Of a stretch of DNA of 57,460 bases, positions 32,713-57,460 are shown in pieces. The stretch is taken from positions 1 through 57,460 of the IMG/VR virus record IMGVR_UViG_3300011271_000005. One strand, given 5' to 3'. The translations under genes and the position numbers were made by a program. Every line of letters begins with the position of its first letter. The first letter of the stretch is position 1. A model generated the notes under the pieces. It saw nothing but the letters and a program-made list of their open reading frames with translations. It did no database searches and was not told the DNA's origin. Source of the stretch: a virus.

Positions 32713-33260
32713 TTTAATTTCTTTTTAGGTTCCTTGATTTCTAGTGTTGGAGTTGCTGGTGTAATAGTCATGAAATTACTAACTTCTTTTAAAGCATTTT
32801 TAGCAAATTCACTACCTTTTTCTGCATCTTCTTGTAGTTGTCGGTATTCAGTAAGCAGAAAATTTGGCTGCCAACTCACTAATCTTTCAGCAACAAATTT
32901 ACCTTCATTACCGAGCTTTTCAATACGCTCTAAGCCAGCCCAAACAAGATCATTATCGTTATCTAATTTATAGTTATATTTATTATTAACTTTAAGATCA
33001 AATTCATTTCCAAGAGCTATTGTGTTCATACCTTCTTTAGCTTCAGGTACAAATACTTTAGCAACAAGTTTGCGTAACGTCATTTCTTTTTCTTTATAAT
33101 TATCAAGCCTAGTTTTACTATGTTGATGAAGCATAAGTAATCCATTTTTATCCATAGGAAAATTATTAATAATTAATTGGCGTTCAATTTCTTCAGTCAA
33201 CCATTCCGGTTTAAAGCTAGGCTGTTGAGCTTCAATTGATTGTGACCATGAGTTATTCAT
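32709..33260 (-). CDS. Hypothetical protein (183 aa), recombination-module accessory
   Basis: Track ORF, coupled to the ATPase gene. Confidence 0.5.
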   Translation of the reverse strand: MNNSWSQSIEAQQPSFKPEWLTEEIERQLIINNFPMDKNGLLMLHQHSKTRLDNYKEKEMTLRKLVAKVFVPEAKEGMNTIALGNEFDLKVNNKYNYKLDNDNDLVWAGLERIEKLGNEGKFVAERLVSWQPNFLLTEYRQLQEDAEKGSEFAKNALKEVSNFMTITPATPTLEIKEPKKKLK

Positions 33261-33792
33261 AATTTATTATTCCTTTTACTTCTCTTTTAAGCTCAAGTTT
33301 TCTTGTTGAATTATCCATCATTTTCTTATGAGATTTTCTTTGAGCTAAAGACATTCTATCTTTTATTTCTTGTGATCTTTTCTTTCCAGTATTTGCTAAT
33401 GCTGTTCTGGCTACAGCTTCAGGATTTCTTTTTGTTCCTTTATAACGTTCTGACTGTTTCTTTTTAAATTTTTCTGTATGCTTTGTTCCTAATCTACTAC
33501 CAGCTACAGGCGATAAATTAAATCCAAATTCTGGATTACCTGTGCTTAACCAATCAATCCAAAATTGTTCTTTTGTTAATAATTCATTTTTCTTGCAATG
33601 TTCAATTATTTCAAATTTGAAATTCGTCATTTCATGTTTATTATAAGCACGTTGTAAATATTTATTGTCATGTTGATTTAATCTTAAATCAGATTTATGA
33701 ACTCTCCATCTATGGTCAAACCATACAGCACTTCCAATATATACTTTATTGGTAATTAAACAAGTAATTTTATAAATTCCAGTATTTACCAT
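33253..33792 (-). CDS. GIY-YIG homing endonuclease (free-standing)
   Basis: GIYKITCLITNKVYIGSA contains GIY...YIG. It has a basic C-terminal DNA-binding-like half. Confidence 0.8.
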   Translation of the reverse strand: MVNTGIYKITCLITNKVYIGSAVWFDHRWRVHKSDLRLNQHDNKYLQRAYNKHEMTNFKFEIIEHCKKNELLTKEQFWIDWLSTGNPEFGFNLSPVAGSRLGTKHTEKFKKKQSERYKGTKRNPEAVARTALANTGKKRSQEIKDRMSLAQRKSHKKMMDNSTRKLELKREVKGIINYE

Positions 33793-34233: not shown

Positions 34234-34406
34234 TATAATTGCTCTAACAATAATTCAGCTAATTTCTTAGCTATCGTATAAATATCATTATTTTCAAGAT
34301 CATTAGGAATAGATAACATAGCTTCTTTAAGACCTAATGCTTTTACTATATCTGATGTTAAAATTAAAGTATTAGTAGGATCATATATTATATATAATTG
34401 ACTCAT
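34233..34406 (-). CDS. Hypothetical protein (57 aa)
   Basis: ATGA overlap with the upstream ORF. It is below the track cutoff. Confidence 0.35.
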   Translation of the reverse strand: MSQLYIIYDPTNTLILTSDIVKALGLKEAMLSIPNDLENNDIYTIAKKLAELLLEQL

Positions 34407-34627
34407 GGTAATTCGATCCGTTCATATTCCATATTTAACCAAGCCATTCTAATAAAGTCACATTCTTCTTCAGCTTCACGCCATCGCTGTTTCCAGCTAG
34501 CAATTTCCATACGATAGCGAAGTTCATTCTGCTTTTTTAGTTGGTAGATCAGTGTTAAAGCTAATGTGAATGACCATTTAAGACCTTTTGTGAGTCGAAA
34601 GCTATCTGCTCCCTTTTTCCTTGTCAA
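34403..34627 (-). CDS. Hypothetical protein (74 aa), first ORF of the leftward operon; start uncertain
   Basis: It has only a TTG start, which coincides with a TTGACA hexamer. It is translationally coupled to the next ORF. Confidence 0.35.
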   Translation of the reverse strand: MTRKKGADSFRLTKGLKWSFTLALTLIYQLKKQNELRYRMEIASWKQRWREAEEECDFIRMAWLNMEYERIELP

Positions 34628-34632
34628 GCCTC

Positions 34633-34662
34633 TTGCTAAAAAATAAGTTTCAAGTCTATACT
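34633..34662 (+). promoter_or_regulatory. Rightward early promoter in the divergent control region
   Basis: TTGCTA (34633), an 18-nt spacer, then TATACT (34657), preceded by GTC. A minus-strand TTGACA lies 5 bp away. Confidence 0.55.
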
Positions 34663-34694
34663 TTACTAAATTTGCTTCAAGGAATTAAAAATCA

Positions 34695-34904
34695 ATGATG
34701 AATCAAGAGCTTAAGCTTAAGGCTAAGACTTTAGAACTTTTTTATAAACTTCCTCGCCATGTGAAAAGTAGCGAAATAACCGCTGCCACAGGCCTTACTA
34801 ACTCGTGGCTTTGTGATTTCACCAGAGGACGAATAAAAAGTCCTAATGTTGATTATGTAGAAAAACTCTATATATTTCTCGCTAAAAAACCATTAGATTT
34901 ATAA
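34695..34904 (+). CDS. HTH DNA-binding protein (Cro/CI-like regulator candidate)
   Basis: SSEITAATGLTNSWLCDFTRGRIKSP is helix-turn-helix-like. It is the first gene of the rightward operon. Confidence 0.55.
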   Translation: MMNQELKLKAKTLELFYKLPRHVKSSEITAATGLTNSWLCDFTRGRIKSPNVDYVEKLYIFLAKKPLDL

Positions 34905-34920
34905 TAATGCCCACAATATA

Positions 34921-37224
34921 ATGGGCGGGGCATATATGAATAATTTTGATAATATTCCGATGGAAATGCGGGAGTATAAACAGTGGTGTGTTTGGAAGTA
35001 TATAGATAAAGGTAGACCAAAATTAGATAAGGTTCCATATAAAGCAGATGGATATCCACTGTCGCCAACTGATCCTAGTGATTGGATGACATGGGCTCAG
35101 GTGATGACGCTCGCTCCGATGTATGATGGCATCGGATTTATATTTCATTCGTCATGTCCATTTGCATTTATAGATTTAGATAATGCTGATGGCGATCTTG
35201 ATATGCAGAAGCTTCAAATTAAAATATTTAAAGAATTTGATAGCTATTCTGAATATAGTCCGTCTGGTAAAGGATTGCACATTATTATCAAAGGATCAAT
35301 TCCAGAAGGTAAAAATTACGGTGGAGTAGAACTTTATTCTAATGGTCGTTTTGGTACTATGACTGGCAATGTATTTGCTAATAAACCTATTGTAGAACGT
35401 CATAATCTATTAAATCAATTATACAATCAATTGAATGAAAAATTTGGTCGTCTCAATAACAATTCTAATTTTAATGTTCCTGATATTGAAGAAACTCAAA
35501 CTGATGAAACATTATTAGAATTAGCATTTAAACATAACTCAGAAAAATTTATTCCGTTATCATTAGGAGAATGGCAAGGAAAATATCCTTCACAATCTGA
35601 AGCTGATCAGGCTTATATGAATATTATTGCTGCTTATACTGATAACAGAAATCAAGTTATTCGCATATATTCAAAGTCAAAATTAGCTAAAACTGATAAA
35701 AAGCGTACAACACAGTATTATTTAAATAAAACAGTCAATACAGCTTTCGATCAAAAGATTCCTGATATAGTTTTTAATGGATATGAAAAATATTCTGGTC
35801 CCGTAGCTCAGCGGTCAGAGCCAATCGCTCATAACGGTTTGGTCGCAGGTTCAAATCCTGTCGGGACTACCAACACTCAAGATGCTATAATTCCTCCATT
35901 TGGTTTATTAGGTGAAATAGCTCAATTTATTTATAGCGCAGCACCTAGACAAATACCTGAAATAGCTATTGGGGGAGCTATAGGTTTAATGGCTGGTATT
36001 TGTGGACGTGCATTTAATATTAATGGAACAGGTTTGAATCAATATGTTCTATGTCTAGCAACAACAGGTATGGGAAAAGAAGCAGCGGCTTCAGGTATAG
36101 ATAAAATCATAAATGAAGTTCAAAAGCAGATTCCTGTTGCTTCTGAATTTATTGGACCTAGTGAAATTGCATCAGGACAGGCATTAATAAAATATGTATC
36201 AAATAAATCTCAATCATTTGTTTCTATCATTGGTGAATTTGGTATTAGATTACAAATTATGTCTGACTTACGGGCAAATAGCTCAGAAAGAACATTACGT
36301 AAAGTATTATTACAACTTTATCAAAAATCTGGTCATGATGATGTTCTTAGATCATCAGCTTATGCTGATAAAGAAAAAAATACTAATGATGTCTCAGCAC
36401 CAGCATTTTCAATTCTCGCTGAAAGCACTCCTGAAACTGTTTATGAAACAGCTAATGAAAATATGATAACTGATGGTTTATTACCTAGGTTTATTATTTT
36501 AGAGTATAAAGGTAAGCGTCAATATCTAAATAAAAATCATTACAATATCAGACCATCAAAAAATCTTGTAGATAATATTGCTGATTTGATGGCTAAAGCT
36601 AAAATGCTAATGGCTAAAAGAGAAGTTATTCAGATAAAGTTGGATGAAGAAGTTATTAAATTGTTTACTAATTATGATAAAGAAACAACAGATGATATGA
36701 ATTTAAAAGATGCTCATAAAGCTATTAAAGAATTATGGAACAGAGCCGATTTAAAAGTGCTTAAGCTAGCTGGACTTGTAGCAATAGGTATTAATATGAA
36801 TGATCCTGTTGTAACAAAGTATGAATTTGATTGGGCGCGTAATATTATAGAAAGTGGTATTCATGCTCTTTCAAAGAAGTTTGAAAGCGGTGAAGTTGGC
36901 ATTAATAGTAATGAACTTAAACAAGTAGAAGAATTGACACGCATTCTTAAAGAATATGTGGAAAAAGATTTTCAATATGTTTCTAAATATAAAGCAACAC
37001 AATCTTTACATATTTCTAAAATTATATGCAATACTTATCTTAGTTTAAGATTAACTAAAATGGCTGCATTTAGAAATGATAAAGTTGGTGGGACTAACGC
37101 TTTGAAAAGAACAATACAAATTATGATAGATAACGGTATTCTTAAATTAGCTGGAGGTTTAGATTTTCAAAATAGACATAAAATTACTGGTAAAGCTTAT
37201 TATATAAATATAAATAGCATTTAG
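34921..37224 (+). CDS. Primase-polymerase (AEP/PrimPol N-terminal domain) fused to a P-loop helicase-like C-terminal domain; contains an in-frame tRNA
   Basis: YKQWCVWKY...KVPYKADG...DWMTWAQV...GIGFIF...FIDLDNADGD...GKGLHIII is PrimPol-like. The C-terminal half has LATTGMGKEAA (Walker A-like). The single 767-codon frame is open through 35797..35872. Confidence 0.75.
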   Translation: MGGAYMNNFDNIPMEMREYKQWCVWKYIDKGRPKLDKVPYKADGYPLSPTDPSDWMTWAQVMTLAPMYDGIGFIFHSSCPFAFIDLDNADGDLDMQKLQIKIFKEFDSYSEYSPSGKGLHIIIKGSIPEGKNYGGVELYSNGRFGTMTGNVFANKPIVERHNLLNQLYNQLNEKFGRLNNNSNFNVPDIEETQTDETLLELAFKHNSEKFIPLSLGEWQGKYPSQSEADQAYMNIIAAYTDNRNQVIRIYSKSKLAKTDKKRTTQYYLNKTVNTAFDQKIPDIVFNGYEKYSGPVAQRSEPIAHNGLVAGSNPVGTTNTQDAIIPPFGLLGEIAQFIYSAAPRQIPEIAIGGAIGLMAGICGRAFNINGTGLNQYVLCLATTGMGKEAAASGIDKIINEVQKQIPVASEFIGPSEIASGQALIKYVSNKSQSFVSIIGEFGIRLQIMSDLRANSSERTLRKVLLQLYQKSGHDDVLRSSAYADKEKNTNDVSAPAFSILAESTPETVYETANENMITDGLLPRFIILEYKGKRQYLNKNHYNIRPSKNLVDNIADLMAKAKMLMAKREVIQIKLDEEVIKLFTNYDKETTDDMNLKDAHKAIKELWNRADLKVLKLAGLVAIGINMNDPVVTKYEFDWARNIIESGIHALSKKFESGEVGINSNELKQVEELTRILKEYVEKDFQYVSKYKATQSLHISKIICNTYLSLRLTKMAAFRNDKVGGTNALKRTIQIMIDNGILKLAGGLDFQNRHKITGKAYYININSI
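35797..35872 (+). tRNA. tRNA with CAU anticodon (elongator Met or Ile2 type), CCA encoded
   Basis: Hand-folded cloverleaf. The acceptor stem is ggtcccg/cgggact and the D arm is gctc-agcggtca-gagc. The anticodon arm is aatcg-ctCATaa-cggtt and the T arm is gcagg-ttcaaat-cctgt. The discriminator is A, followed by CCA. There is no 3xGC initiator signature. Confidence 0.85.
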
Positions 37225-37493
37225 GATGGTTAGTACGTTCAAGGCGCTTCGTAGTATGGTACTAAGTATTTGAAATCTATATACTATTGGCAAAAAAGTA
37301 TGCTTAGGAATAGTATGCCTCTAAAATACACATACATACACCCCCCTCCCCCCTCCCCCTCCCCCCCCTAATATTTAATTCTTCTATACTATACATACTA
37401 TTATATTATATATAAGAGAAACAAAGACTTAGCTAACCTAAGACCTAAACTAAAGTGGACTATGGAACCTAAACATAAAAATGGAGGTTGAAA
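37225..37493. other. Non-coding region with short AGTATG/ATAC(T/A) repeats flanking a C-tract; origin or packaging-site candidate
   Basis: AGTATG(G/C) occurs at 37253, 37297 and 37312. catacataca and tatactatacatactat flank the tract. An AT-only stretch spans 37369..37415. No ORF is present. Confidence 0.35.
37341..37368. repeat. Polypyrimidine C-tract C6-T-C6-T-C5-T-C8 (minus strand G8-A-G5-A-G6-A-G6)
   Basis: Read directly as cccccctcccccctccccctcccccccc. Its four C/G runs with 1-nt loops fit the G-quadruplex / i-motif rule. Confidence 0.9.
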
Positions 37494-37577
37494 ATGTCAA
37501 AAGTTTATGATAGAATGTGTGCAGTTAAGCCAGAAATTCGTGATATCTTGTGGGCATATAAAAAAGCAATAATTTAA
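37494..37577 (+). CDS. Small ORF (27 aa), possibly extended by a -1 shift at an A6 run
   Basis: SD ggagg. The sequence is MSKVYDRMCAVKPEIRDILWAYKKAII. The -1 frame is open from 37562 to TGA 37658-37660. Confidence 0.3.
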   Translation: MSKVYDRMCAVKPEIRDILWAYKKAII

Positions 37578-37656
37578 ATAGAGCTATTGACGAAATTGGG
37601 CAACTGCTAGATGATGTTTTGGATTATGCTATATATTTTGATACAAAGGATATCAA

Positions 37657-37857
37657 ATGAATAACCTAATTCACCGTTCATGTTCTAATTGTATTTATTG
37701 GCATGATGTTAAAGTTATTAGAAATGGATTGGTTGAAGCTATATGTGAAAAAGAAGAACTTAAATATACTCAAGGCAGCAATAAGTGTGGGCAATGGAAG
37801 AAGTTGAAATATTATTATAGTATAATATATGATGAAATGGAAAAGGATTATAGATGA
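37657..37857 (+). CDS. Cys-rich small protein (66 aa)
   Basis: Track ORF containing CSNCIYW...C...CGQW. Confidence 0.5.
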   Translation: MNNLIHRSCSNCIYWHDVKVIRNGLVEAICEKEELKYTQGSNKCGQWKKLKYYYSIIYDEMEKDYR

Positions 37858-47768: not shown

Positions 47769-47852
47769 GCTCTCATGGTGGAACGGGTAGACACTAGAGA
47801 CTTAAAATCTCTTGCTTATAGCGTACAGGTTCGAATCCTGTTGAGAGCACCA
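47769..47852 (+). tRNA. tRNA-Leu (anticodon UAA), type II with long variable arm, CCA encoded
   Basis: Hand-folded. The acceptor stem is gctctca/tgagagc. The D stem is 3 bp with a GG loop. The anticodon arm is agaga-ctTAAaa-tctct. The variable arm is tgcttatagcgt. The T arm is acagg-ttcgaat-cctgt, followed by A-CCA. Confidence 0.85.
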
Positions 47853-47941: not shown

Positions 47942-48103
47942 ATGAGCAATGAAATGTATAAGGCATTTGATGAAGCTATGCAGTCTTTGGAACGTCTTGA
48001 GGCTCTTACCAGACGTGAGCACGGTAATGCTCATAAACGAGTACATGACGTATATGTGAACCTTGATATTGTTCAAGACAAGTTGCTTGGAAATATAGCT
48101 TGA
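47942..48103 (+). CDS. Hypothetical protein (53 aa)
   Basis: ATG 47942 follows ggaga. The track TTG start at 47897 lies inside the -10 box. Confidence 0.45.
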   Translation: MSNEMYKAFDEAMQSLERLEALTRREHGNAHKRVHDVYVNLDIVQDKLLGNIA

Positions 48104-48194
48104 CGATCACTGATTGATCGTATAGGCTTTCTTTATCGACTGGAGCAAATGCCCAATTATCTCCAACGATATTATTTCAGCACCTAAATTATTT

Positions 48195-48226
48195 GGCCTA
48201 GCTTCTTGAATGGAGCTAGGCCTTTT
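48195..48226 (+). terminator. Rho-independent terminator ending the early operon
   Basis: ggcctagct / agctaggcc (9-bp stem, 10-nt loop) followed by TTTT. Confidence 0.7.
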
Positions 48227-48234
48227 GCTATGAT
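48206..48234 (+). promoter_or_regulatory. Promoter nested in the terminator, aimed at the TerS-like gene
   Basis: TTGAAT lies in the hairpin loop. The 17-nt spacer includes the 3' arm. TATGAT ends 6 nt before ATG 48241. Confidence 0.45.
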
Positions 48235-48240
48235 CGTAAA

Positions 48241-48864
48241 ATGCAATCGCCCAAACCAACCATATTTGATGCTAGAAATGTCGCGCCTTGGGTTGTCAGC
48301 GAGCCTCAACAGCTATCGTCTTTATGGGGTTCAAATGTTCAATCTCAACCATCACCAAAGCCTGATTTTGCTGACAATGACGAGCTTAAGAAAGCATTTG
48401 GAATTGAATTAGGGCGTGGCTTGGATACCTTCAATGCTGGATTGAAAGTATTTGACGAGGTGATGCCTAAAGCATTGTGGGCAAGTGTAAATTGGGCAAA
48501 AGACCCTATAGTTATTGCTTCTCGTGATGCTTATATAATTACGTTAAAAAAAGCAGCTAAACCGCTTGACAAAGAGGAACTTTTAGCAGAGGTTTTGGAA
48601 CAATCGCGATTCGCACCTGAATTTAAAGATAAAGCTTCACTTTTAAAATTATATTCTGATATTGCTGGTTACACTGGTAAGATTGCGATAGATGCTTCCA
48701 CTAATACAACAAACAATACTCAAAATAACAATCTTACTAAAATAGTTTTAGTTAAAGGTTCACAAGAGCCAGTTTCGAATAACAATAAAGCTCCTGATAT
48801 GAATAATCAATCAAAAATACAAAATAGCTTGCCCAATCTTAAGTTGGTTGGAGGCTTACGGTAG
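48241..48864 (+). CDS. Terminase small subunit candidate
   Basis: 207 aa. The pattern ...WAKDPIVIASRDAYI...LDKEELLAEVLEQSR...KDKASLLKLYSDIAGYTGK is typical of TerS central/oligomerisation regions. It is the first gene after the early terminator. Confidence 0.45.
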   Translation: MQSPKPTIFDARNVAPWVVSEPQQLSSLWGSNVQSQPSPKPDFADNDELKKAFGIELGRGLDTFNAGLKVFDEVMPKALWASVNWAKDPIVIASRDAYIITLKKAAKPLDKEELLAEVLEQSRFAPEFKDKASLLKLYSDIAGYTGKIAIDASTNTTNNTQNNNLTKIVLVKGSQEPVSNNNKAPDMNNQSKIQNSLPNLKLVGGLR

Positions 48865-48894
48865 TATTTTTGATTAACCCATGGAGCAAAAGAT

Positions 48895-50385
48895 ATGCGA
48901 AAGAAACTTGGTATTGCAGTATTAGCAATTATTGCTAGTGCTAGTGTTGCATATGCTGCTGGCGTATGGAACGGACTTCCGATTGTTGGTGATCCCGGTA
49001 ACACGGTTTGTCTTGATTTTGGTAGCACTCCTGCTACTACGCCGGGTAACTGTAACCAGTTTAGTCCTGCTGGTCCTACTGGTTTGACTGGTAACGAGCT
49101 TATTCCTACTGATACTGGCCAGCAGAATCCAGCTACGGTGTATATCCCAGCATCGTTGCTTGGTAGTTCTGTCAATCGTTTGATTGGTGGTGATATGACC
49201 ACTAATCTTAATCAGCGTCCTAGCACTGTTAAAGGTGTTGCTTCGCTAGCAACGTTATCTCCAACTGCTGCTGTGATTACGGCTGATCGTTGGTGGACAA
49301 TTGCTCCTGCTGCTGGTGTTACTGTTACTATCGATAGCACCGCTGCTACTGCTGTTATTCCGGGTTTAAGTAATACTAAAGCGCTTCGTTTAGCTCGTAC
49401 TACCTCTGGCGCTGCTGGTATTATGTGCATTGGTCAAACGCTTGATGCTGCTGCTTCTCAGCCGCTTATTGGTAATAACGCTGTATTTTCGTTCTGGGAA
49501 TCCAACGGCCCGGCTCAATCTGCAACTGCTGGTAACTTCACTGTAAACGTTGATTATACGTCTGCTGCTGATGCTGTTGCTACTCAGGCAACGCTTGGCT
49601 TTGCTGGTGCTAATGGTTCGCTATTTGCACTTGGTGATGTAGGCTTGCTTTCTGCTGGCCCTACTAATATGACTCGTGCTATTGCTGGCTTCTCTGCTGG
49701 TACCACTGGTACGGTAACTGCTGGTGTTGCAATGATTGCTGGCTCTACGACTTGGAAACGATATGGTGTTTATGCACCAATTCCGATTAACATTCCCGGT
49801 ACTACTATGCCAGTTACGAGTGTTAGTGTTTCGATTTGCTTCGCTCCGATTCTTACTACTGCTATTACTACGGATTGGATTGAAGTTAACGGTATGCAGT
49901 TAGAAGCTAAGCCTCCTGCTACCAGCGTTACAAATCCAATTGTTAGTGTTCTTGCTCCTAATGGTGTTACTGCTCCTAGTGCTTTTGAACGTCGCTCTGC
50001 GGCATTTGAACAGACATTATCACAGTACTATTGGTATTATAACTTTGAAAGTCAGGTTGCTGGTGGTATTACTACTGTTGCAAGCTGTACAGATGTCACT
50101 ACTGCTCTTGCTAATTGTTGGTTTCAATTTCCTGTTAACATGCGCATTGCTCCAAATGTAAAGTACACTGCTGGTTTTCAAGCATTTACTACAACTGCCT
50201 ATAGTGCTGTTGGCGCATGTACTGCTTTGGCTGCATCAACATCATATGTGACTGTTCCATCTACTACTGGTGCTTTAGCGGCTTGTACAGCTGCTTTAAC
50301 TCCTGCTGCTGGAACTGCTAATAGTTTAACCGCATTAGGCACCGCGTCCTCCACCGGTATTATTTCAGCCTCGGCGGAACCGTAG
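48895..50385 (+). CDS. Exported Ala/Thr/Gly-rich protein A (496 aa), unknown function
   Basis: SD ggag. Signal peptide MRKKLGIAVLAIIASASVAYA/AG. The mature part has few charged residues and contains LIGGDMTTNLNQRP...ITADRWW. Confidence 0.65.
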   Translation: MRKKLGIAVLAIIASASVAYAAGVWNGLPIVGDPGNTVCLDFGSTPATTPGNCNQFSPAGPTGLTGNELIPTDTGQQNPATVYIPASLLGSSVNRLIGGDMTTNLNQRPSTVKGVASLATLSPTAAVITADRWWTIAPAAGVTVTIDSTAATAVIPGLSNTKALRLARTTSGAAGIMCIGQTLDAAASQPLIGNNAVFSFWESNGPAQSATAGNFTVNVDYTSAADAVATQATLGFAGANGSLFALGDVGLLSAGPTNMTRAIAGFSAGTTGTVTAGVAMIAGSTTWKRYGVYAPIPINIPGTTMPVTSVSVSICFAPILTTAITTDWIEVNGMQLEAKPPATSVTNPIVSVLAPNGVTAPSAFERRSAAFEQTLSQYYWYYNFESQVAGGITTVASCTDVTTALANCWFQFPVNMRIAPNVKYTAGFQAFTTTAYSAVGACTALAASTSYVTVPSTTGALAACTAALTPAAGTANSLTALGTASSTGIISASAEP

Positions 50386-50416
50386 GATTTAATCTGAAAC
50401 AGAAAGGATTAAACCT

Positions 50417-50839
50417 ATGCCCTTAACTCTTCCGAGTAAACAAGTCAGACAATACACCACTTCTAAACAGTTAATTGGCGGTGATGATTTTAACGGAATC
50501 GTCGCTCAATTAAATTCATCAGCGGTTGGTATCACTGCTGGTGTTGGTGGTGGTTCTGCTAATGCTGTTGCACTAGCTAATGCTTTTAATACTATATCAA
50601 CGGTCGCTAGTGCCAATGATAGTGTAAAACTTCCAAAAGGTTTTGCTGGTTTGGAAGTCAGTATTGCCAATCAAGCCGCAGCTAACTCACTTCAAGTATT
50701 TACTTCTAGTAAAGGCCTTATCAATAATACTGATGGTGTCGCTACTGGAGTAGCTTTAGCTGCTAGTCAAACATCATATACATTATATTCGTGTTTTAGA
50801 ATAGATGCTACTAATGGTGAAATTTGGTTATCTAAGTAA
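50417..50839 (+). CDS. Cassette protein B (140 aa), no signal peptide
   Basis: SD aaagga. The protein is Ala/Gly/Ser-rich. A terminator follows. Confidence 0.6.
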   Translation: MPLTLPSKQVRQYTTSKQLIGGDDFNGIVAQLNSSAVGITAGVGGGSANAVALANAFNTISTVASANDSVKLPKGFAGLEVSIANQAAANSLQVFTSSKGLINNTDGVATGVALAASQTSYTLYSCFRIDATNGEIWLSK

Positions 50840-50853
50840 TTACTCCCCAGACT

Positions 50854-50884
50854 TGCCCCGGTGCAGAAGCCGGGGCATCTTTTT
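50854..50884 (+). terminator. Rho-independent terminator inside the cassette
   Basis: tgccccgg / ccggggca (8-bp stem, 8-nt loop) followed by TCTTTTT. It lies inside the N-terminal extension of track ORF 50805..51335, which argues against that extension. Confidence 0.75.
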
Positions 50885-50897
50885 AGGAATAAGTTTT

Positions 50898-51335
50898 ATG
50901 AAGAAATTATTAGTACATATTGTAGCATTATTTTTATTACTTTGCCCACAATTAGCTTTAGCTGCTAATGCATTTTTAGCTGATTCTAAAATTAAAATTA
51001 CATCTATTATTGTAGCTAATAACACGACTGCTGTTGTAATTAGCACTACACAATCAACTGTTTATTCAGTAGATGCTTTTAACAATGCTGGTGCGATTGC
51101 TTATGTAAAATTATATAACGCATCAACTGGTACTTGTGGTACTGGAACTCCGCAAGCTCGTTATATGATTCCATTTGGGGCTAGTTCCTCTGGTGGCGGA
51201 TTTAATGTTTCAAATATTAACGGCGATGCTTATGCTAATGGAATTGTGATGTGTATTACTACTGGTATAGCAGATACTGATATTGTTGCTCCGAGCTCTA
51301 ATGCTTATATTGTCAATATTCATTATAAGAATTAA
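50898..51335 (+). CDS. Exported protein C (145 aa)
   Basis: SD agga. Signal peptide MKKLLVHIVALFLLLCPQLALA/AN. It shares a TG(T/A)TCG(T/A)GT-containing segment with 51530..52216. Confidence 0.65.
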   Translation: MKKLLVHIVALFLLLCPQLALAANAFLADSKIKITSIIVANNTTAVVISTTQSTVYSVDAFNNAGAIAYVKLYNASTGTCGTGTPQARYMIPFGASSSGGGFNVSNINGDAYANGIVMCITTGIADTDIVAPSSNAYIVNIHYKN

Positions 51336-51518
51336 ATGAAAACCATTTTAACAGCCATTCTTATCATTAGTGTGGGCATAGTGACTGCTTACGCTGGTGG
51401 TTTTTCTATGCTTCATGTTGGCTCTGCTGATGGTAATGGTGGCGGAGGTGGTGGTTGTTCTAACCAACTTGATTTTTCACAAGCTTGTAATTCTCAGTAT
51501 ATACCGATTATTCATTAA
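51336..51518 (+). CDS. Exported Gly-rich peptide D (60 aa)
   Basis: The ATG abuts the upstream stop. Signal peptide MKTILTAILIISVGIVTAYA/GG. The roughly 40-aa mature part has GNGGGGGGC and two Cys. Confidence 0.5.
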   Translation: MKTILTAILIISVGIVTAYAGGFSMLHVGSADGNGGGGGGCSNQLDFSQACNSQYIPIIH

Positions 51519-51529
51519 AGGATAGCACA

Positions 51530-52216
51530 ATGTTTAAAAAGCTTCTGCTAACAATCGCATTCTCGTTAGTTGCGAGCAGTGCATTTGCGGTATGTGGTGC
51601 TATCCCATTAACTATTAAAGATGCTAGTGCAGCAACTCAAAACATATCATCTGCTACTGCTGCTGATGGTAATTGTAAAACTTATATAGACGCTGATACT
51701 GCTTCACAAATTCATACCGATTTGACTGCATCTATTCCTGCCGGTGCTAATTTAATTGGTAAAATTGGTATTGATCAGACTACACCGGGAACAACTAATG
51801 CTGTAGCAGTCACAGCTGGTACTAATCGCATTGGTTATGTTACTGATGATCCTTGTAGCAATGCTAGTTCGAAACTATATAAGCCCATTAGTATAACAAC
51901 CGCTACCACAACCAATATTATTACTGGGACTGCTGCAAAGATAATATATATTTGTCAGCTTTTTCTAACTTCTGCCGCAGCAGATAATATTGCGGTTATC
52001 GAAGGAACTACAGGAGCTACGTGTGGTGCTGGTACCGCAGGTGTAATAGGTGGCACAACTGCAACCAATGGGCTTAACTTTGCGGCCAATGGTGGCGTGT
52101 CAATTGGTAATGGCGCTGCTAATATTGCGCGAACAGCTACTGTCAATAATGATATTTGTTTGATTACGTCAGCGTCTACTCCGCTTGCTGGAGGTATCAC
52201 TTATGCTGTGCAATAA
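51530..52216 (+). CDS. Exported protein E (228 aa), apparent paralogue of C
   Basis: SD aagga. Signal peptide MFKKLLLTIAFSLVASSAFA/VC. The protein is Thr/Ala/Gly-rich. Confidence 0.65.
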   Translation: MFKKLLLTIAFSLVASSAFAVCGAIPLTIKDASAATQNISSATAADGNCKTYIDADTASQIHTDLTASIPAGANLIGKIGIDQTTPGTTNAVAVTAGTNRIGYVTDDPCSNASSKLYKPISITTATTTNIITGTAAKIIYICQLFLTSAAADNIAVIEGTTGATCGAGTAGVIGGTTATNGLNFAANGGVSIGNGAANIARTATVNNDICLITSASTPLAGGITYAVQ

Positions 52217-52217
52217 A

Positions 52218-53144
52218 ATGAAAAGTCTTTTTATTGTTCTAATGCTATTTTTACTTCCAATATCGGCTGAAGCCGCAACTTGTTTTTGGGTCGGTGGTGT
52301 CGGTACTTGGAGTACGGCTAATGCTGCGTCATGGTCATCTTCTACTGGAGGTGCTGGGAGTACTTGTGCTGCGACTGGTGGTATTCCAAAGCAAGCGGCT
52401 GATACAGCTACGTTTGATGGAGCGTCTGGTGGTGGAACCGTTACTGTTGATACAACTATTAACGGTGTGACGCTCACTCAGATTACAATGGGTGCATTTA
52501 CAGGCACGCTTGATTTCAGCATTAATAATCCAAGTGTGACCATGGCGGTGATGTCTATAAGTGGAGCTGGCACACGGACTGTGAAGCTGGGAAGTGGTAC
52601 GTTCACGCTCACGTCGAATAATACCAGCAATATGTTCGATGCATCTACGATCACAGGATTAACCCTTACGGCCGGAACGTCCACAATAAATTTCGCTCCA
52701 TCTAGCGCACCCAATGGCTCATGGGGATTAGCGAGTGGTGGATTGAATGGCGCAAACGCACTCAACAATGTTACGTTTACATTTGGATCAAGCTCCGCAG
52801 TGCGAAATGCTTTCATTACTGGAAGCAACACGATTAACGTGCTGACTGTGGGAGCCAATGTTGCATTACAGCCTAATTCAAATACGACGCAAATTTTAAC
52901 CTCTCTTATAATCGGGGGTACTAGTTCTCTTCAGACGATGCTGGGAGGGGCAGCTTCAACGCCTGCGATCATTAGTATAGCGACAGGTACAATCAACTTA
53001 AGTTGGGCTGGAATTCGAGCTGTAACCTTCACAGGAGGGGCGACATTCATAGCGGCGAACTCTTTTGATCTAGGCAATAATAGCGGAATTACGATTACTG
53101 GACCTGCAGGTGGCGCTGGTGGTGGCCATATCATCGGCGGGTAA
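52218..53144 (+). CDS. Exported beta-helix-like protein F (308 aa)
   Basis: ATG 52218 lies 1 nt after the upstream stop. Signal peptide MKSLFIVLMLFLLPISAEA/AT. CFWVGGVGTWSTANAASW and repeated G-T-x-T-L-T strings resemble autotransporter-type beta strands. Confidence 0.6.
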   Translation: MKSLFIVLMLFLLPISAEAATCFWVGGVGTWSTANAASWSSSTGGAGSTCAATGGIPKQAADTATFDGASGGGTVTVDTTINGVTLTQITMGAFTGTLDFSINNPSVTMAVMSISGAGTRTVKLGSGTFTLTSNNTSNMFDASTITGLTLTAGTSTINFAPSSAPNGSWGLASGGLNGANALNNVTFTFGSSSAVRNAFITGSNTINVLTVGANVALQPNSNTTQILTSLIIGGTSSLQTMLGGAASTPAIISIATGTINLSWAGIRAVTFTGGATFIAANSFDLGNNSGITITGPAGGAGGGHIIGG

Positions 53145-53150
53145 AATACA

Positions 53151-56100
53151 GTGAAAATTTCTCGTCGAAGTTTTGTTCACGGTGCCTGTACAATTGCTGC
53201 AGTCTCATTAAGACCAAATCCTGTTGAAGCATGGTTTCATGGTATGCCTATCATATCGCCGGGCCATTCAGTTCTCAACGCGAACTTCGCTGCTGATCAG
53301 TATTTGAATATCGCCAAGGGATTCACCGTTTCTCTTTCTGGAACGATGACGCCAGCAAGTCTAAATGCGGATCAATATCCGACCGGGATTATCCCGAACA
53401 CCTATGGTGGGAACACCGGATCGAGCGGAATCGATCCATCGTATTTTGGGCACTATACGATCGCTTGGACTGGCGTATCGGCTTTCACGGTAGCCGGAAA
53501 GCCCGTCATCATTTACAATGGTGGCACTTTTGCGGGTTTGGGCGGCGCTTCTGGCGTCGTTCAAAACAATGTCACCATCGGAACGACAGCTAACCCAAGC
53601 GTTGAGTTGGCTGTTGGCGCGCTGATCACCAGCGTGACCACGAGCGGCGGCGGTCTTGTTCAGTTTGGAACGACGACTGGTTTCTGGGGCAACTTCGCTA
53701 CCGGCACGAATGTTAAACTTAATAATCTGACGGGCCTTCCGGCTGGCCCGAATGCCGATGGATCGTGGACGGCGACCAAGGTCGACAATCAGACCTTCAC
53801 ACTCAACGGCTCTGCGGCGTTCGCTGGATTGGTCAGCATCAACACCTCCGGGACGGTCGGAGTAAACACGGAGGCTATCGCCAGCGTCACACAATTCGCT
53901 TTCACTTGGAATCCAACGTTCTCCGCTGTAAATGTCACCCACAATTTCAGCAATTTCATCTTCTGCAACACTGCAAATCTGACTGACCTTAACGCCGGGT
54001 TGCAGCTTAGCCGTCCCTGCATTGCGACAATCAAAGCGGTCAACCCGCGCTATGTCCGCTTCATGGACGCGATGGCGACGCAGGGATTGGTTTCGAACTT
54101 CGCGAGCAAGGCTCCGAGCACCTCCATGGTATGGGGCGCTTTGAGATTTGATCCCACATATTATGGTGGCACGACCGCCGGATCGGCTGATGCCTATACC
54201 TGCTCGAACCCCTCCGCTTCCGGAGGCGGCGCCTATGTAGATGGCGAAACCGTCACAGTCTATGTGGACCGATCGAGCACGACGACCAGCCCGACACTCA
54301 ATGTAAGCGGGCGCGGCGCAGCGAAAATCTTTTCGCGATCGATGCAAAATCTGGTCATGAACATAACTAGTACGGGAGTCAAGAACGCCGCTCTGACCTC
54401 CATATCCGGCTCTGGGACCACAGCTACGGCGACGACCACGGCGCCACACGGATTGACCAACGGCGATCAGTTCGGGATGACGATCGCCGGAGTGACACCC
54501 AGCACCTTTAACGGAACGGTTCTCTGCACCGTCACGGGCGCAAGCACGTTTACCTATCCGAACACGACCAGCGGTGCGGCTTCGGTTGCGGGCAACTATT
54601 CGGTCAATACACGGATCGGTGACATCCTCACCTTCACGTTCACCAATGCCGATTTTGGAACTTATGCTCCGACATATATCGTACAGAGCACCGATCTCAG
54701 CATCGACACCCTTGGTGGACATATAGGCGGCAGTGTCGGTTCGCTTAACGCCGATCTCACCTTAACCGGCAGCGGAATATTTGTTCAGAACAGCGGCGGT
54801 GGATATCTTCCGGTCAATTGCAGGACTGCCACGACATGCGCATTTGGTGTTTCCGGATCGACAATTGAAGCATGCAGCCCCGGCACGATGTCGGGAATCA
54901 CCCAATCTGGAACAGTTGGCTTTCTGACCATCAACACCGCTGCCACCTTTATCTACAATACGCTTTTGGGCGGCTTCATCTTTATTGGCGTCGGCGGTGT
55001 CACCTGCGGCGTTCCGCTGGAATACATCTATGAGATATGCACCAGGGCGAATGCTGGAGCGTGGGTTTGCTTGAACGTTATTTACACTCAGGCTGCGACG
55101 GTCTCTCTCGGTGCAGCCATGGCAACAAATCTGCCGGGGCTTCCGGTGGTCTGCGAGTATAGTAACGAGGTCTGGAATTTCGGCGAATTCCCGGTTACTC
55201 AGTGCAACGGTCTTGCTGCATGCATTGGATTTGGGACTTCGGGCGGCGGCTACATGGATTTCTACGGTCTGCGCACGGCTCAATTGTTGCCCGCGTTCGC
55301 TTCAGGCTGGACCGGCACCGGAAGACCCATCAACACGACAGCGGCGGGTAGAGACCTTGAATTAGTAAATGCCATGACTCCGCTGGAAGGGAGCGGAGGC
55401 TTTACAGGTCAAATGGTGCCGCTGCGCTGGAACGGCGGATGTCTGTCGCCTACTCCGATTGTTGCCACGGGCTCTATCACCGCGACGACATTGACCATGG
55501 CCGTTTCCGCAGGAGCCGTACCCAGGTGCGGAATGCAGGTTACAGGATCGGGCGTGACCGCTGGAACTGTGATAACCAAGGTGGTCAGCGGTACACAATT
55601 CACGGTCAACAATTCGCAGTCCGTCGCCAGCACGACGATTACGATCACTAATCCGCTCTACTCCGCACTCAGCGGCCCCGGCGGCACGGCATCATCGACA
55701 GCGTACAATGCTTTTCCGACGCGCCCGATTGATCTGGTGGACGGGACGTCTTACGCAACCTATGTTCAAGGGGCGCTGGCAGCGAATAACGCCAGCTCAT
55801 GGACTGGCACGCAATCGTTCTACAATACCCTGTTTCAGGCCAGCGCGGACTATGCCAGTGGCATCCCGGCATCGATGGCGAGTGCCATTACGGCTTGGAG
55901 CAATGACATCAGGGATGGCACGAAGAACGGAATTCGCAGCAGTGCGGGGATGTCTTCTTTCCTCGGAGTGACGAATGCCGCCGGAGGCAATAACTTTCTT
56001 CCGGGATGGGAAGCCAAAGTCGCCGTCTATGATGGCGCAAGGCCGAGTGGAAAGACAAACCTGAGCGTCAGGTGTTACGAAGGGATGATTCCGCAACAAT

Positions 56101-56459
56101 CGATGTCCAATAGTGATGGCGGCGTTAACCTAACCACTAGCGTCACCGACATGACAAACAAATTCAATGGCAACGCTTGGGTTCTCTCTCCAACCTACGG
56201 AGCAAGCAACGACGCTGTAGCGTTGAACATGGTCACTCTTGCGCTGGCCTATAAGAATGATCCGCAACTTGCTGCTGATCAGTTATACTTTTGGAACCAA
56301 CAAAAGGCCATTCATGTAAATCGGCCATTCAGCGGCGGCCAATTCGGTATCGAGGGAGGTAGTTCTAGCACATGGGCACTTTATCCGGGTGGCTTGACGT
56401 CAACACCATGGCAAAACTTGACCGGGCAAGCGCAGTACAATGCATTGAATGTCAATTAA
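53151..56459 (+). CDS. Giant GC-rich protein G (1102 aa): twin-arginine-type signal, fibre-like middle, possible glycoside-hydrolase-like C-terminal region
   Basis: GTG start. MKISRRSFVHGACTIAAVSLRPNPVEA/W carries an SRRxF motif, an h-region and AxA. The fibre-like strings are TLNVSGRGAAKI and TAPHGLTNGDQFGMTIAGV..FNGT..TV...TFTY. The C-terminal region has VVCEYSNEVWNF (NE motif). Coherent codon usage is seen only in this frame. Confidence 0.7.
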   Translation: MKISRRSFVHGACTIAAVSLRPNPVEAWFHGMPIISPGHSVLNANFAADQYLNIAKGFTVSLSGTMTPASLNADQYPTGIIPNTYGGNTGSSGIDPSYFGHYTIAWTGVSAFTVAGKPVIIYNGGTFAGLGGASGVVQNNVTIGTTANPSVELAVGALITSVTTSGGGLVQFGTTTGFWGNFATGTNVKLNNLTGLPAGPNADGSWTATKVDNQTFTLNGSAAFAGLVSINTSGTVGVNTEAIASVTQFAFTWNPTFSAVNVTHNFSNFIFCNTANLTDLNAGLQLSRPCIATIKAVNPRYVRFMDAMATQGLVSNFASKAPSTSMVWGALRFDPTYYGGTTAGSADAYTCSNPSASGGGAYVDGETVTVYVDRSSTTTSPTLNVSGRGAAKIFSRSMQNLVMNITSTGVKNAALTSISGSGTTATATTTAPHGLTNGDQFGMTIAGVTPSTFNGTVLCTVTGASTFTYPNTTSGAASVAGNYSVNTRIGDILTFTFTNADFGTYAPTYIVQSTDLSIDTLGGHIGGSVGSLNADLTLTGSGIFVQNSGGGYLPVNCRTATTCAFGVSGSTIEACSPGTMSGITQSGTVGFLTINTAATFIYNTLLGGFIFIGVGGVTCGVPLEYIYEICTRANAGAWVCLNVIYTQAATVSLGAAMATNLPGLPVVCEYSNEVWNFGEFPVTQCNGLAACIGFGTSGGGYMDFYGLRTAQLLPAFASGWTGTGRPINTTAAGRDLELVNAMTPLEGSGGFTGQMVPLRWNGGCLSPTPIVATGSITATTLTMAVSAGAVPRCGMQVTGSGVTAGTVITKVVSGTQFTVNNSQSVASTTITITNPLYSALSGPGGTASSTAYNAFPTRPIDLVDGTSYATYVQGALAANNASSWTGTQSFYNTLFQASADYASGIPASMASAITAWSNDIRDGTKNGIRSSAGMSSFLGVTNAAGGNNFLPGWEAKVAVYDGARPSGKTNLSVRCYEGMIPQQSMSNSDGGVNLTTSVTDMTNKFNGNAWVLSPTYGASNDAVALNMVTLALAYKNDPQLAADQLYFWNQQKAIHVNRPFSGGQFGIEGGSSSTWALYPGGLTSTPWQNLTGQAQYNALNVN

Positions 56460-56530
56460 CTTTTAAGAGTTTAAATAATAAATGCAATTACAAGATAACA
56501 CAATAGAATTTCCTGAGCGTAAGGAGGTGC

Positions 56531-57460
56531 ATGGTGGAGCAAATTATCGAGTTCCCTGATAAATTAGCCTTCTTATTATTTGAAAGTGCTCGTTTAAAAA
56601 TACCTTGGGGCGGTCGTGGTGCTGGCAAAACTGAGAATATTTGTCGTGCATTAATTCTATTATCTCGTACTAAAAAGCTTCGTATTCTTTGTGGTCGTGA
56701 ATTTCAAAATTCTATTGATGAAAGCGTCAAAGCAACCATTGAAGCTAATATTGAAGAGTTAGGATTAAGTGATGATTTTTATATAACTAAAAAACAAATC
56801 ATTTGTAGGTCTACAGGCTCACGTTTTATTTTTATGGGCTTGCGTTATAATATCAGTAAAATTAAATCAATGGGCCGAATCGATATTTGTTGGATTGAAG
56901 AAGCTGATAAAACTTCTGCTAATACATTAGATAAATTATTTCCTACTATTCGTGGTCGTTCTGATTTAGAAGAAGATAAAGGTGGTCCGTTTGGCGATGG
57001 TCCGGAAATATGGATGAGCTTCAATCCAGATTTAGAAGATGATGAAGTATATAAGCGATATGTTTTAAATCAAATTAAATATGCTCCTGAATATGTCAAT
57101 GGTAAGCGATATGCTATTGTAGCTAAAGTTAATTATTGGGATAATAAATGGTTTCCTCCTGATCTTAAGATGGAAATGGAGGTTATGCGTAATGCTAGTC
57201 AAGATAAATATCTTCAAGTGTGGGAAGGCCATGTTAAACAGATTTTAGAAGGCTCTATTTATGCAGAAGAATTACAAGAAGTACTTAAGAATAGTCGTCG
57301 AAAGCATGTTCCTCATGATCCTAATAAACCAGTATTAACATTTTGGGATTTAGGTCATTCTGATAAGACTGCTATTTGGTTTGTACAACGTGCTGGTGTT
57401 GAATTCAATGTAATTAATTATTATGAAGATAGATTAAAGAAAATACCATTTTATGTTAAA
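56531..57460 (+). CDS. terL: Terminase large subunit, N-terminal (ATPase) part; the ORF runs off the window and continues at 124..555
   Basis: SD aaggagg is followed by ATG 56531. Walker A is PWGGRGAGKT. CWIEEAD looks like Walker B. There is no stop before 57460. The joined gene is 1362 nt. Confidence 0.85.
   Translation, partial: MVEQIIEFPDKLAFLLFESARLKIPWGGRGAGKTENICRALILLSRTKKLRILCGREFQNSIDESVKATIEANIEELGLSDDFYITKKQIICRSTGSRFIFMGLRYNISKIKSMGRIDICWIEEADKTSANTLDKLFPTIRGRSDLEEDKGGPFGDGPEIWMSFNPDLEDDEVYKRYVLNQIKYAPEYVNGKRYAIVAKVNYWDNKWFPPDLKMEMEVMRNASQDKYLQVWEGHVKQILEGSIYAEELQEVLKNSRRKHVPHDPNKPVLTFWDLGHSDKTAIWFVQRAGVEFNVINYYEDRLKKIPFYVK
57338..57460. repeat. Terminal direct repeat, right copy (identical to 1..123)
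   Basis: Verbatim identity over 123 nt. Confidence 0.95.

Follow-up and report, generated by a model that had tools for sequence, protein, structure and literature searches.

The closest precedent for a transfer RNA (tRNA) gene placed inside a protein-coding sequence is selC, the gene for tRNA-Sec, which on the basis of bioinformatic prediction is nested in the selB open reading frame (ORF) of Alphaproteobacteria (Mukai 2021, Int J Mol Sci 22:4605, PMC8124441). According to the model put forward for this pair, processing of the tRNA leaves a non-stop messenger RNA (mRNA), such that tRNA and full-length protein are alternative products of the locus; among relatives, remnants or losses occur (PMC8124441). 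A mitochondrial tRNA-Lys inside cox1 of Armadillidium vulgare, as cited in the same paper, is a second case. Here we describe a nested tRNA gene in a virus. The window – the whole stretch of 57,460 nt that was analysed, IMG/VR record IMGVR_UViG_3300011271_000005 – encodes a primase-polymerase (PrimPol)-helicase, and a tRNA with a CAU anticodon lies within the ORF of this enzyme. The explanation that we favor, and consider probable on the evidence of sequence comparison, is that this is a functional phage tRNA gene nested in the linker of the protein, which would be co-transcribed with the replicase mRNA and released by a cleavage that destroys that copy of the mRNA.

A tRNA gene inside a PrimPol-helicase reading frame

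ARAGORN called two tRNAs in the whole window. One of these, tRNA-Met(cat), lies at 35797-35872 on the + strand and has its anticodon at tRNA position 34. Rfam RF00005 matches the same interval with 62.6 bits, compared to a gathering score of 29 (E = 3e-11; model positions 1-71 of 71). The 76 nt make up a canonical 7/4/5/5 cloverleaf (GGTCCCG-TA-GCTC-AGCGGTCA-GAGC-C-AATCG-CTCATAA-CGGTT-TGGTC-GCAGG-TTCAAAT-CCTGT-CGGGACT-ACCA) with an encoded CCA (3' ACCA), and their guanine-plus-cytosine (GC) content is 56%, compared to ~33% in the surrounding region. The minimum-free-energy fold of this single sequence is not a cloverleaf in the D and anticodon arms (z = -2.45); folding of a single sequence is a poor test, however, and we relied instead on covariation among relatives (below).

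The tRNA is contained wholly within one uninterrupted frame of 767 codons plus stop (34921-37224, + strand), the translation of which runs through the tRNA as ...YSGPVAQRSEPIAHNGLVAGSNPVGTTNTQD... It takes up codons 293-317 and the first base of codon 318 and is translated as GPVAQRSEPIAHNGLVAGSNPVGTT (residues 293-317), with the anticodon CAT at 35830-35832 read as His304; a peptide of the ORF that spans the linker is, for example, SEPIAHNGLVAGSNPVGTTNTQDAIIPPFGLLGEIAQFIYSAAPR. The remaining two frames of the tRNA are closed by stops. A first-pass annotation, made from the letters of the window, had described a canonical 76-nt tRNA(CAU) with CCA, read in frame by the surrounding ORF and with no restart codon nearby. 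ARAGORN and Rfam confirm the first point, the open frame the second, and the position of the next in-frame ATG the third: this codon is Met357, inside the conserved helicase block. The sole other tRNA of the phage, tRNA-Leu(UAA) (47769-47852, + strand; ARAGORN, Rfam 58.5 bits), is free-standing and lies outside any long ORF. As an internal control it has a stop-free span of no more than 37 codons.

Full-length homologues (41-66% identical), together with Pfam families PF22763 and PF13148, define the ORF as a PrimPol-helicase of NrS-1-like type, with both domains in a single polypeptide. The N-terminal portion, an AEP PrimPol plus helix-bundle domain (residues 1-279; 34921-35757, + strand), is matched over residues 8-270 by the PDB profiles 6A9W, 6K9A and 7RR3 (NrS-1 primase-polymerase) and 7OLA, with E = 1e-37 to 1e-52; the match to PF22763 itself, the NrS-1 helix-bundle domain, reaches 26.2 bits and is just below the cutoff of 27.9. 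The C-terminal portion (residues 322-767; 35884-37221, + strand) is a DUF3987 P-loop helicase domain (PF13148, E = 1e-10) in which TGxGKE and other motifs are invariant among homologues, and which has no start codon of its own. Homologues begin (MNNFD...) at the position of the ATG at 34936, which may be the true start of the whole protein.

Between the two domains is a linker of residues 280-321 (35758-35883, + strand), and it is this linker that holds the tRNA. An AlphaFold2 model built on an alignment of 20 sequences gives confident folds on either side, but a predicted local distance difference test (pLDDT) score of only 26-39, well below 50, for residues 280-321. The low score indicates that the peptide coded by the tRNA is a disordered tether. 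The tRNA falls in the sole non-conserved region of the alignment, the link between the two domains, and the link is not lengthened by it: 58 residues separate the same two motifs here, compared to 43-76 non-conserved, low-complexity residues in relatives free of tRNA. The earlier proposals that PrimPol lies upstream of the tRNA and the P-loop domain downstream, and that the tRNA doubles as an inter-domain linker, are both supported by these data.

A further proposal was that the tRNA is a recent in-frame insertion between two formerly separate genes, and this one fails on both counts. Fusion of separate genes is refuted because every tRNA-free homologue, those of Septimatrevirus, KL1 and PaMx42 phages included, is already one fused protein: the proteins of the cultured siphophages PaMx42 (Septimatrevirus), KL1 (Kilunavirus), LPPA15 and Kmi2C are single polypeptides, 41-44% identical to that of the window over 96-99% of its length. 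Recency is at odds with the fact that the arrangement is common to proteins only 44-66% identical to the window protein. No linker tRNA was found in any of five cultured-phage loci scanned, and a DNA search of cultured phages with the whole gene returned matches only via the tRNA, at 79-82% identity to free-standing phage tRNAs.

The helicase half alone is encoded in many genomes of Sphingomonadales and other proteobacteria (loci L098-L128; L numbers denote the loci and contigs of our collection). Matches to these genes start at residues 293-330 of the query, near the tRNA-coded linker or directly behind it. The domain boundary is thereby confirmed, and elsewhere the two halves are evidently encoded by genes of their own. 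Other relatives of the gene carry an intein (P0087, 1148 aa: PF05203 and PF14528) or an HNH domain (P0094: PF13392), from which it follows that the gene tolerates in-frame cargo; in records of Pseudomonas phage PSV3 (L005) the gene is in 3-4 pieces. The PrimPol-helicase gene thus seems to be a frequent target for inserted elements.

Conservation among relatives and constraints on the shared segment

A protein search recovered homologues, 44-66% identical, that keep the motif VAQRxEPxAHNxLVxGSNPxxxT, that is, the translated tRNA. A set of 212 loci, drawn from IMG/VR, metagenomes and species genomes, was searched in full with ARAGORN; it comprises 188 distinct primase-helicase ORFs. One to three tRNAs are present inside the uninterrupted ORF in 52 of the 188, always on the coding strand and in five arrangements: CAU alone (20 distinct ORFs), Gln(UUG)-CAU (13), CAU-Gln (10), Gln alone (7) and Gln-CAU-Arg(UCU) (2). 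In relatives, this site can thus hold two or three different tRNAs in a row, a feature that goes beyond the first-pass annotation. In L023 (2406-2635) and L090 (2406-2632), for example, Gln(UUG), CAU and Arg(UCU) follow one another in tandem, 0-2 nt apart and in frame, within an ORF of 837-855 codons. Rfam confirms the nested Gln, CAU and Arg genes of relatives at 55-72 bits, and these scores match those of free-standing tRNAs. Two 76-nt ARAGORN calls of Gln(ttg), at 2449-2524 of L143 and 1243-1318 of L145, differ from the 74-nt Gln type in phase and in peptide; Rfam gives them 63.9 and 70.9 bits, respectively, and their isotype may be miscalled.

We mapped the trait onto a neighbour-joining tree built from 145 full-length proteins. 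The ORFs that bear a tRNA are confined to a single clade of ~72 leaves, and the 73 outgroup sequences, cultured phages among them, are without tRNA. The tree points to one clade-level origin of the nested arrangement, and related genes have conserved the trait, a whole sense tRNA through which the frame runs without a stop. Members of the clade are AT-rich (median GC of the primase ORF 0.38, compared to 0.50 in the outgroup) and their full-length contigs measure ~57-60 kb. In the ORFs of clade members lacking a tRNA, Rfam detected no sub-threshold or degenerate tRNA; their linkers are ordinary low-complexity peptides. Three relatives without nested tRNAs (L079, L192 and L211) have a free-standing CAU, Leu(UAA) or Gln(UUG) tRNA (L079 899-1053, - strand; L192 370-443, - strand; L211 2595-2670, + strand) no more than ~1 kb from the primase gene, and a short-range relocation may have given rise to the nested state.

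If the segment is maintained as a tRNA gene, then its helices should be kept while its sequence changes. Across the 19 distinct nested CAU tRNAs, 99.5% of pair cells are paired and changes on both sides are seen in 17 of 21 pairs; none of 500 shuffles reaches the observed values, and slid partners pair in just 29-48% of cases. The 17 nested Gln tRNAs behave in the same way, with 98% of cells paired and both-sided changes in 16 of 21 pairs. Helices of 7, 4, 5 and 5 bp are thus kept by compensatory change. Moreover, G-U pairs are found only in the sense orientation, which suggests that selection acts at the level of RNA and not on duplex DNA.

This last result bears directly on the idea that the segment is a DNA-level element – a replication origin, or a site in its own gene that is bound by the primase-helicase – whose resemblance to a tRNA is secondary. 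The position of the segment is suggestive in this respect: it is in the linker-coding part of a replication initiator gene, near a strand switch and the turning point of GC skew at ~34 kb, and the origin of phage lambda lies in the linker-coding part of gene O. A DNA element would account neither for pairing that is preserved by compensatory changes as the sequence diverges, nor for the restriction of G-U pairs to one strand, nor for the substitution of different tRNA species for one another, and no iterons or repeats were seen. We regard it as very improbable.

Invariant columns in the alignment of the 19 CAU tRNAs are U8, A14, G18, U33, the anticodon C34 A35 U36, A37, G53 T54 T55 C56, A58 and the CCA. 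Conservation of structure alone is no proof of aminoacylation, and cleavage by ribonuclease (RNase) P would lower the amount of protein regardless of the fate of the RNA that is released. It is therefore conceivable that the segment is a tRNA-like cis element of the mRNA (an RNase P target, a stability element or a translational brake on dosage) rather than a tRNA that takes part in decoding. Several features make this unlikely: anticodon loop, T-loop and encoded CCA are all kept; the anticodons are limited to CAU, UUG and UCU; and near-identical tRNA types are free-standing in related phages. A cleavage signal alone needs neither three isoacceptor identities nor preserved anticodons.

The coding properties of the segment are equally distinctive. 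Mean pairwise nucleotide identity at the first, second and third codon positions is 0.80/0.77/0.75 within the tRNA, without codon periodicity, compared to 0.79/0.92/0.43 and 0.84/0.87/0.48 in the flanking coding blocks. The lack of periodicity indicates that there is no protein-level constraint inside the segment. Stop codons are a different matter. Among 64 unique nested tRNAs, one frame is free of stops in 54 and two frames in 10, and the ORF always runs in an open one. Tandem tRNAs are separated by spacers of at least 11 different lengths (-1, 0, 1, 2, 4, 5, 7, 19, 25, 29 and 34 nt), and the frame is always restored. In contrast, the free-standing CAU tRNAs of relatives L079 and L211 have stops in all three frames.

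For comparison we took a background set of 443 tRNAs on 119 other viral contigs that share the CAU-tRNA core. The stop-free span around these tRNAs has a median of 49 codons and a 95th percentile of 160; against this background, the open frame around the window tRNA exceeds what chance would give. Spans of at least 250 codons number 15, of which 11 are the same primase-helicase gene. The four that remain were considered as candidates for nested tRNAs in other genes and were rejected: those of L233 and L306 are spurious frames in GC-rich sequence, and in L231 and L225 the tRNA is not nested but upstream of an integrase-like ORF or of another ORF. Together, covariation and frame-keeping show that the same DNA is under two separate constraints, one for a tRNA cloverleaf and the other for an open frame that joins two domains.

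The same comparative data refute the notion that a recent neutral event inserted the nested tRNA, that it is a decaying pseudogene or that it is an artefact of assembly. In its favor is only the prior expectation that a tRNA inside a coding sequence (CDS) is usually an annotation artefact. The arrangement is seen in more than 50 independent contigs from many samples, covariation is strong, Rfam scores are like those of free-standing tRNAs, and the proteins concerned share no more than 44-66% identity with that of the window. We assign this explanation next to no probability.

Predicted expression, probable decoding role and genome context

Every nested tRNA points in the same direction as its host gene, and no separate promoter could be recognized; we infer that the primase-helicase mRNA includes the tRNAs, with transcription perhaps starting in the divergent promoter region near 34633-34662. 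A promoter-like site (TTGCTA-18-TATACT; 34633-34662, + strand) found there by consensus scan, in the divergent intergenic region, is a weak candidate for the promoter of a rightward operon that would co-transcribe primase gene and tRNA. A scan of 34300-37700 for promoters and terminators gave counts equal to those of shuffled sequence, with 17 promoter sites compared to 18.5 expected. The first gene of the rightward unit is a small ORF of 69 aa (34695-34904, + strand) from the ORF list, which has no Pfam match; the primase-helicase follows. A small ORF at the same place in homologous phages is, in the annotation of KL1 and PaMx42, a regulator or helix-turn-helix (HTH) protein. Between the small ORF and the primase-helicase is a GC-rich hairpin, GCCCACAATATAATGGGC, at 34909-34926; it overlaps the first candidate ATG at 34921.

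A transcript of this kind would have two possible fates. In the first, a ribosome would read through the unfolded tRNA segment and produce the full-length enzyme, in which the 25 tRNA-coded residues would serve as a flexible tether only. In the second, the cloverleaf would fold, host RNase P would cut at its 5' end, and the 3' end would be formed by endonuclease cleavage and exonuclease trimming to the encoded CCA. Excision would leave a 5' fragment without a stop and a 3' fragment without a start, with the result that this copy of the mRNA would no longer make replicase. The pathway of RNase P cleavage and 3' trimming is known for tRNA operons of Escherichia coli and for dimeric precursors of phage T4. 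Given this known processing, excision of the tRNA and synthesis of the full-length protein should be mutually exclusive on one transcript, as the first-pass annotation had proposed together with a potential built-in switch. In the clade as a whole no conserved start codon follows the nested tRNAs, and the helicase domain can therefore be made only by read-through.

Mutual exclusion raises the question of whether the choice between the two fates is regulated. In such a switch, or timer, release of the tRNA and translation of the replicase would be actively controlled, for instance by ribosome occupancy or by the stage of infection: excision would shut off the primase-helicase and raise translation capacity for late genes, and the stop-less 5' piece might still yield PrimPol. 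The attraction of the idea is that processing and read-through are expected to exclude each other on one RNA molecule, as in the model proposed for selC nested in selB (PMC8124441), and that the tRNAs are always directly before the helicase domain of an essential replication gene, a position kept across the clade. In addition, the N-terminal part alone corresponds to solved fragments of the NrS-1 primase-polymerase, which comprise ~290-320 residues. The sequence carries no sign of regulation, however. The tRNA species vary (CAU only, Gln only, both in either order, plus Arg), ~1/3 of the clade is without them, and the relatives L079, L192 and L211 hold similar tRNAs as free-standing genes near the primase gene. 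Variable content and frequent absence fit a tolerated parking site in a permissive linker better than a tuned switch, and we consider active control to be doubtful. Of similarly modest probability is the more specific proposal that competition between the ribosome, which unfolds and translates the segment, and RNase P, which cuts it, sets the ratio of primase-helicase to tRNA, with stand-alone PrimPol as a possible further product. Were a control circuit of this sort to operate, the supply of replication protein would fall as translation capacity for AT-rich late genes rises, and an RNA gene serving as a cleavable linker in a protein would define a new class of gene regulation.

Under the preferred explanation, a functional tRNA gene released from a share of the transcripts, the likely benefit lies in decoding. 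The AT-rich part of the genome uses AUA 18.4, CAA 33.6, AGA 14.7 and UUA 37.9 times per 1000 codons, and the probable contribution of the nested tRNAs is capacity to decode A-ending codons (AUA, CAA, AGA), of which these AT-rich phages make heavy use. The hallmarks of a bacterial initiator tRNA-fMet – a C1xA72 mismatch, A11:U24 and three G:C pairs at 29-31/39-41 – are absent: pair 1:72 is G-U in the window tRNA (among 19 clade tRNAs, GC in 11, GU in 7 and AU in 1), pair 11:24 is C:G in 18 of the 19 CAU tRNAs, and the anticodon-stem pairs 29:41 and 30:40 of the window tRNA are U-G and C-G. These positions assign the CAU tRNA to the elongator type, either an AUA-reading tRNA-Ile2 or an elongator tRNA-Met, and not to the initiator. 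Its top full-length match in E. coli (77.9%) is the tRNA-Ile adjoining rpoD-mug, which we take to be ileX, and 12 of the 19 clade CAU tRNAs are nearer to ileX than to metT. Use of AUA is consistent with tRNA-Ile2 but is not decisive. The metT-leuW-glnU-glnW-metU-glnV-glnX operon of E. coli (L333) holds the same isotypes (Met-type CAU, Leu and Gln) as these phages, and the phage tRNA set may derive from capture of a metT-type operon.

A number of observations weigh against the preferred explanation. The ~1/3 of clade members that are devoid of nested tRNAs, having lost them or never had them, show the same codon usage as the rest, which implies that the arrangement is dispensable; nor does the model explain what advantage a nested location has over an intergenic one. 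The isotype is blurred by the narrow difference between identity to ileX and to metT (79% compared to 75% for the window tRNA; 72.8% compared to 70.5% for the clade mean), and by the acceptor pairs 4:69 and 5:68, which are C4:G69 and C5:G68 in the window tRNA and vary across the clade. Co-transcription is challenged by the possibility of a dedicated internal tRNA promoter, which may be present given that the promoter scan does no better than shuffled sequence. The tRNA-bearing clade is without a cultured member, the best identity to a cultured phage being 43.6%. Finally, between certain phages the tRNA is 99-100% identical although the flanking 600 nt are just 51-73% identical (the window compared to L007/L014 and L008/L015); in other clade pairs the tRNA is 76-92% identical. 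Such near-identity could mean that the tRNA is very strongly constrained, that phages exchange it, or that it is converted against a host tRNA common to them, and it hints at events of exchange or conversion that are outside the model.

Near-identity despite divergent flanks is also what would be seen if the tRNA matched a host site. Phages commonly integrate into tRNA genes, and the nested tRNA might on these grounds be an attP, the target for integration into a host tRNA gene, with integration splitting the primase-helicase as SSV1-type integrases split their own gene. This fits poorly with the remaining evidence. The window is a complete phage genome of 57,337 bp, as shown by an exact direct repeat of 123 nt at 1-123 and 57338-57460 (either a circular assembly overlap or a terminal repeat), and no match to an integrase or recombinase was found with Pfam and PHROGs in its ORFs of at least 300 aa or in the other ORFs tested. 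The whole tRNA is present, its 5' half included, relatives have up to three tRNAs in tandem, and the stems co-vary. Among 185,579 species genomes scanned, none contained a prophage in which the gene is split at a tRNA: the sole tRNA-bearing match, L093, is an intact ORF on a short contig of a metagenome-assembled genome (MAG), and the rest of the matches are intact ORFs or unrelated helicase-only genes. We thus consider an attP to be most unlikely. The tRNA-Ser genes near helicase-only bacterial homologues (L105, L115) were examined as a sign of attP and dismissed, being more than 270 nt away, of a different species and not systematic.

Two primase-helicase contigs are binned in Candidatus Saccharibacteria MAGs (L093, CAYSOB010000021.1; L095, CAZBOT010000139.1). 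The former has nested tRNAs in the order Gln-CAU. The binning may be a clue to the host or an artefact.

Elsewhere the genome encodes portal, major head, head-closure, ejection and tail-collar proteins, and a leftward replication module that comprises DNA polymerase, processivity factor, helicase, Cas4-type exonuclease, single-stranded DNA-binding protein (SSB), Sak4 and GIY-YIG endonuclease. A GIY-YIG-type homing endonuclease (33253-33792, - strand) adjoins the replication module, and an HNH endonuclease (1364-1771, + strand) is located just before the portal gene. At 48000-57300 the GC content rises from ~0.35 to 0.43-0.57 and AGA is used 2.9 times per 1000 codons, compared to 14.7 elsewhere; the free-standing tRNA-Leu(UAA) lies just upstream of the rise, where the AT-rich part of the genome meets this GC-rich block. 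The block contains eight ORFs, among them one of 1102 aa (53151-56459) and one of 496 aa (48895-50385). Pfam has no match to the seven largest and PHROGs none to the two largest, and the 1102-aa ORF has no tblastn match in 50,697 phage records. The region may have been acquired horizontally as a block, or it may serve as a host-range module.

Comparison with known systems

Our literature search turned up no phage primase or helicase gene described as containing tRNAs. The locus extends nested tRNA genes, known from one bacterial prediction (selB-selC) and from mitochondria, to viruses; it extends them also to arrays of up to three tRNAs, and to a position at which excision halves an essential replication protein. 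It is a natural case in which one segment is selected both as a structured RNA gene and as translatable code, and the two constraints can be separated: covariation without codon periodicity is the signal of the former, stop purging and frame-keeping spacers that of the latter. It further provides a testable system for how cells split a transcript between translation and RNA processing, and suggests that disordered linkers can serve as havens for the insertion of non-coding genes in compact genomes. There is also a practical consequence: annotation pipelines that forbid overlap between CDS and tRNA will truncate or split the replicase.

The host protein is itself a family member of the NrS-1/Septimatrevirus/KL1-type PrimPol-helicases (PF22763 plus DUF3987), and only the tRNA sets it apart. 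The comparison with inteins, which relatives of the same gene contain, is instructive: an intein is removed at the protein level by its own splicing, whereas the inserted tRNA, an RNA gene, is retained in the protein and forms a linker there. With the thrU-tyrU-glyT-thrT-tufB and metT-leuW-glnUW-metU-glnVX operons of E. coli and the T4 dimers, the locus shares the placement of tRNAs in a longer transcript with spacers of a few nt; in those operons, however, the tRNAs are outside coding sequences and their processing destroys no ORF. The mitochondrial case, so far as it is described where cited in PMC8124441, is alike in that a complete tRNA in direct orientation is part of a coding region and one transcript gives either tRNA or intact mRNA. 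It differs in that the phage tRNAs are full-size, canonical and high-scoring, with CCA, and are positioned in a dispensable linker and not in conserved protein sequence.

The likeness to selB-selC is closest. In both, a whole sense tRNA inside the ORF is translated in frame, and in both the trait is conserved yet dispensable among relatives. The differences are nonetheless considerable. The tRNA of selB follows all functional domains, as an extension of the C-terminus, whereas here it stands between two essential domains, and excision would therefore bisect an essential enzyme. In selB-selC, tRNA and protein are functional partners; here no link between tRNA and replicase is known, and the variation in nested species (CAU, Gln and Arg) argues that there is no specific partnership of tRNA and protein. 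Lastly, the bearer of the arrangement here is a virus, the nested genes comprise up to three different tRNAs in tandem and in varying order, and frame-keeping spacers and the purging of stops are documented across the full set of unique nested tRNAs.

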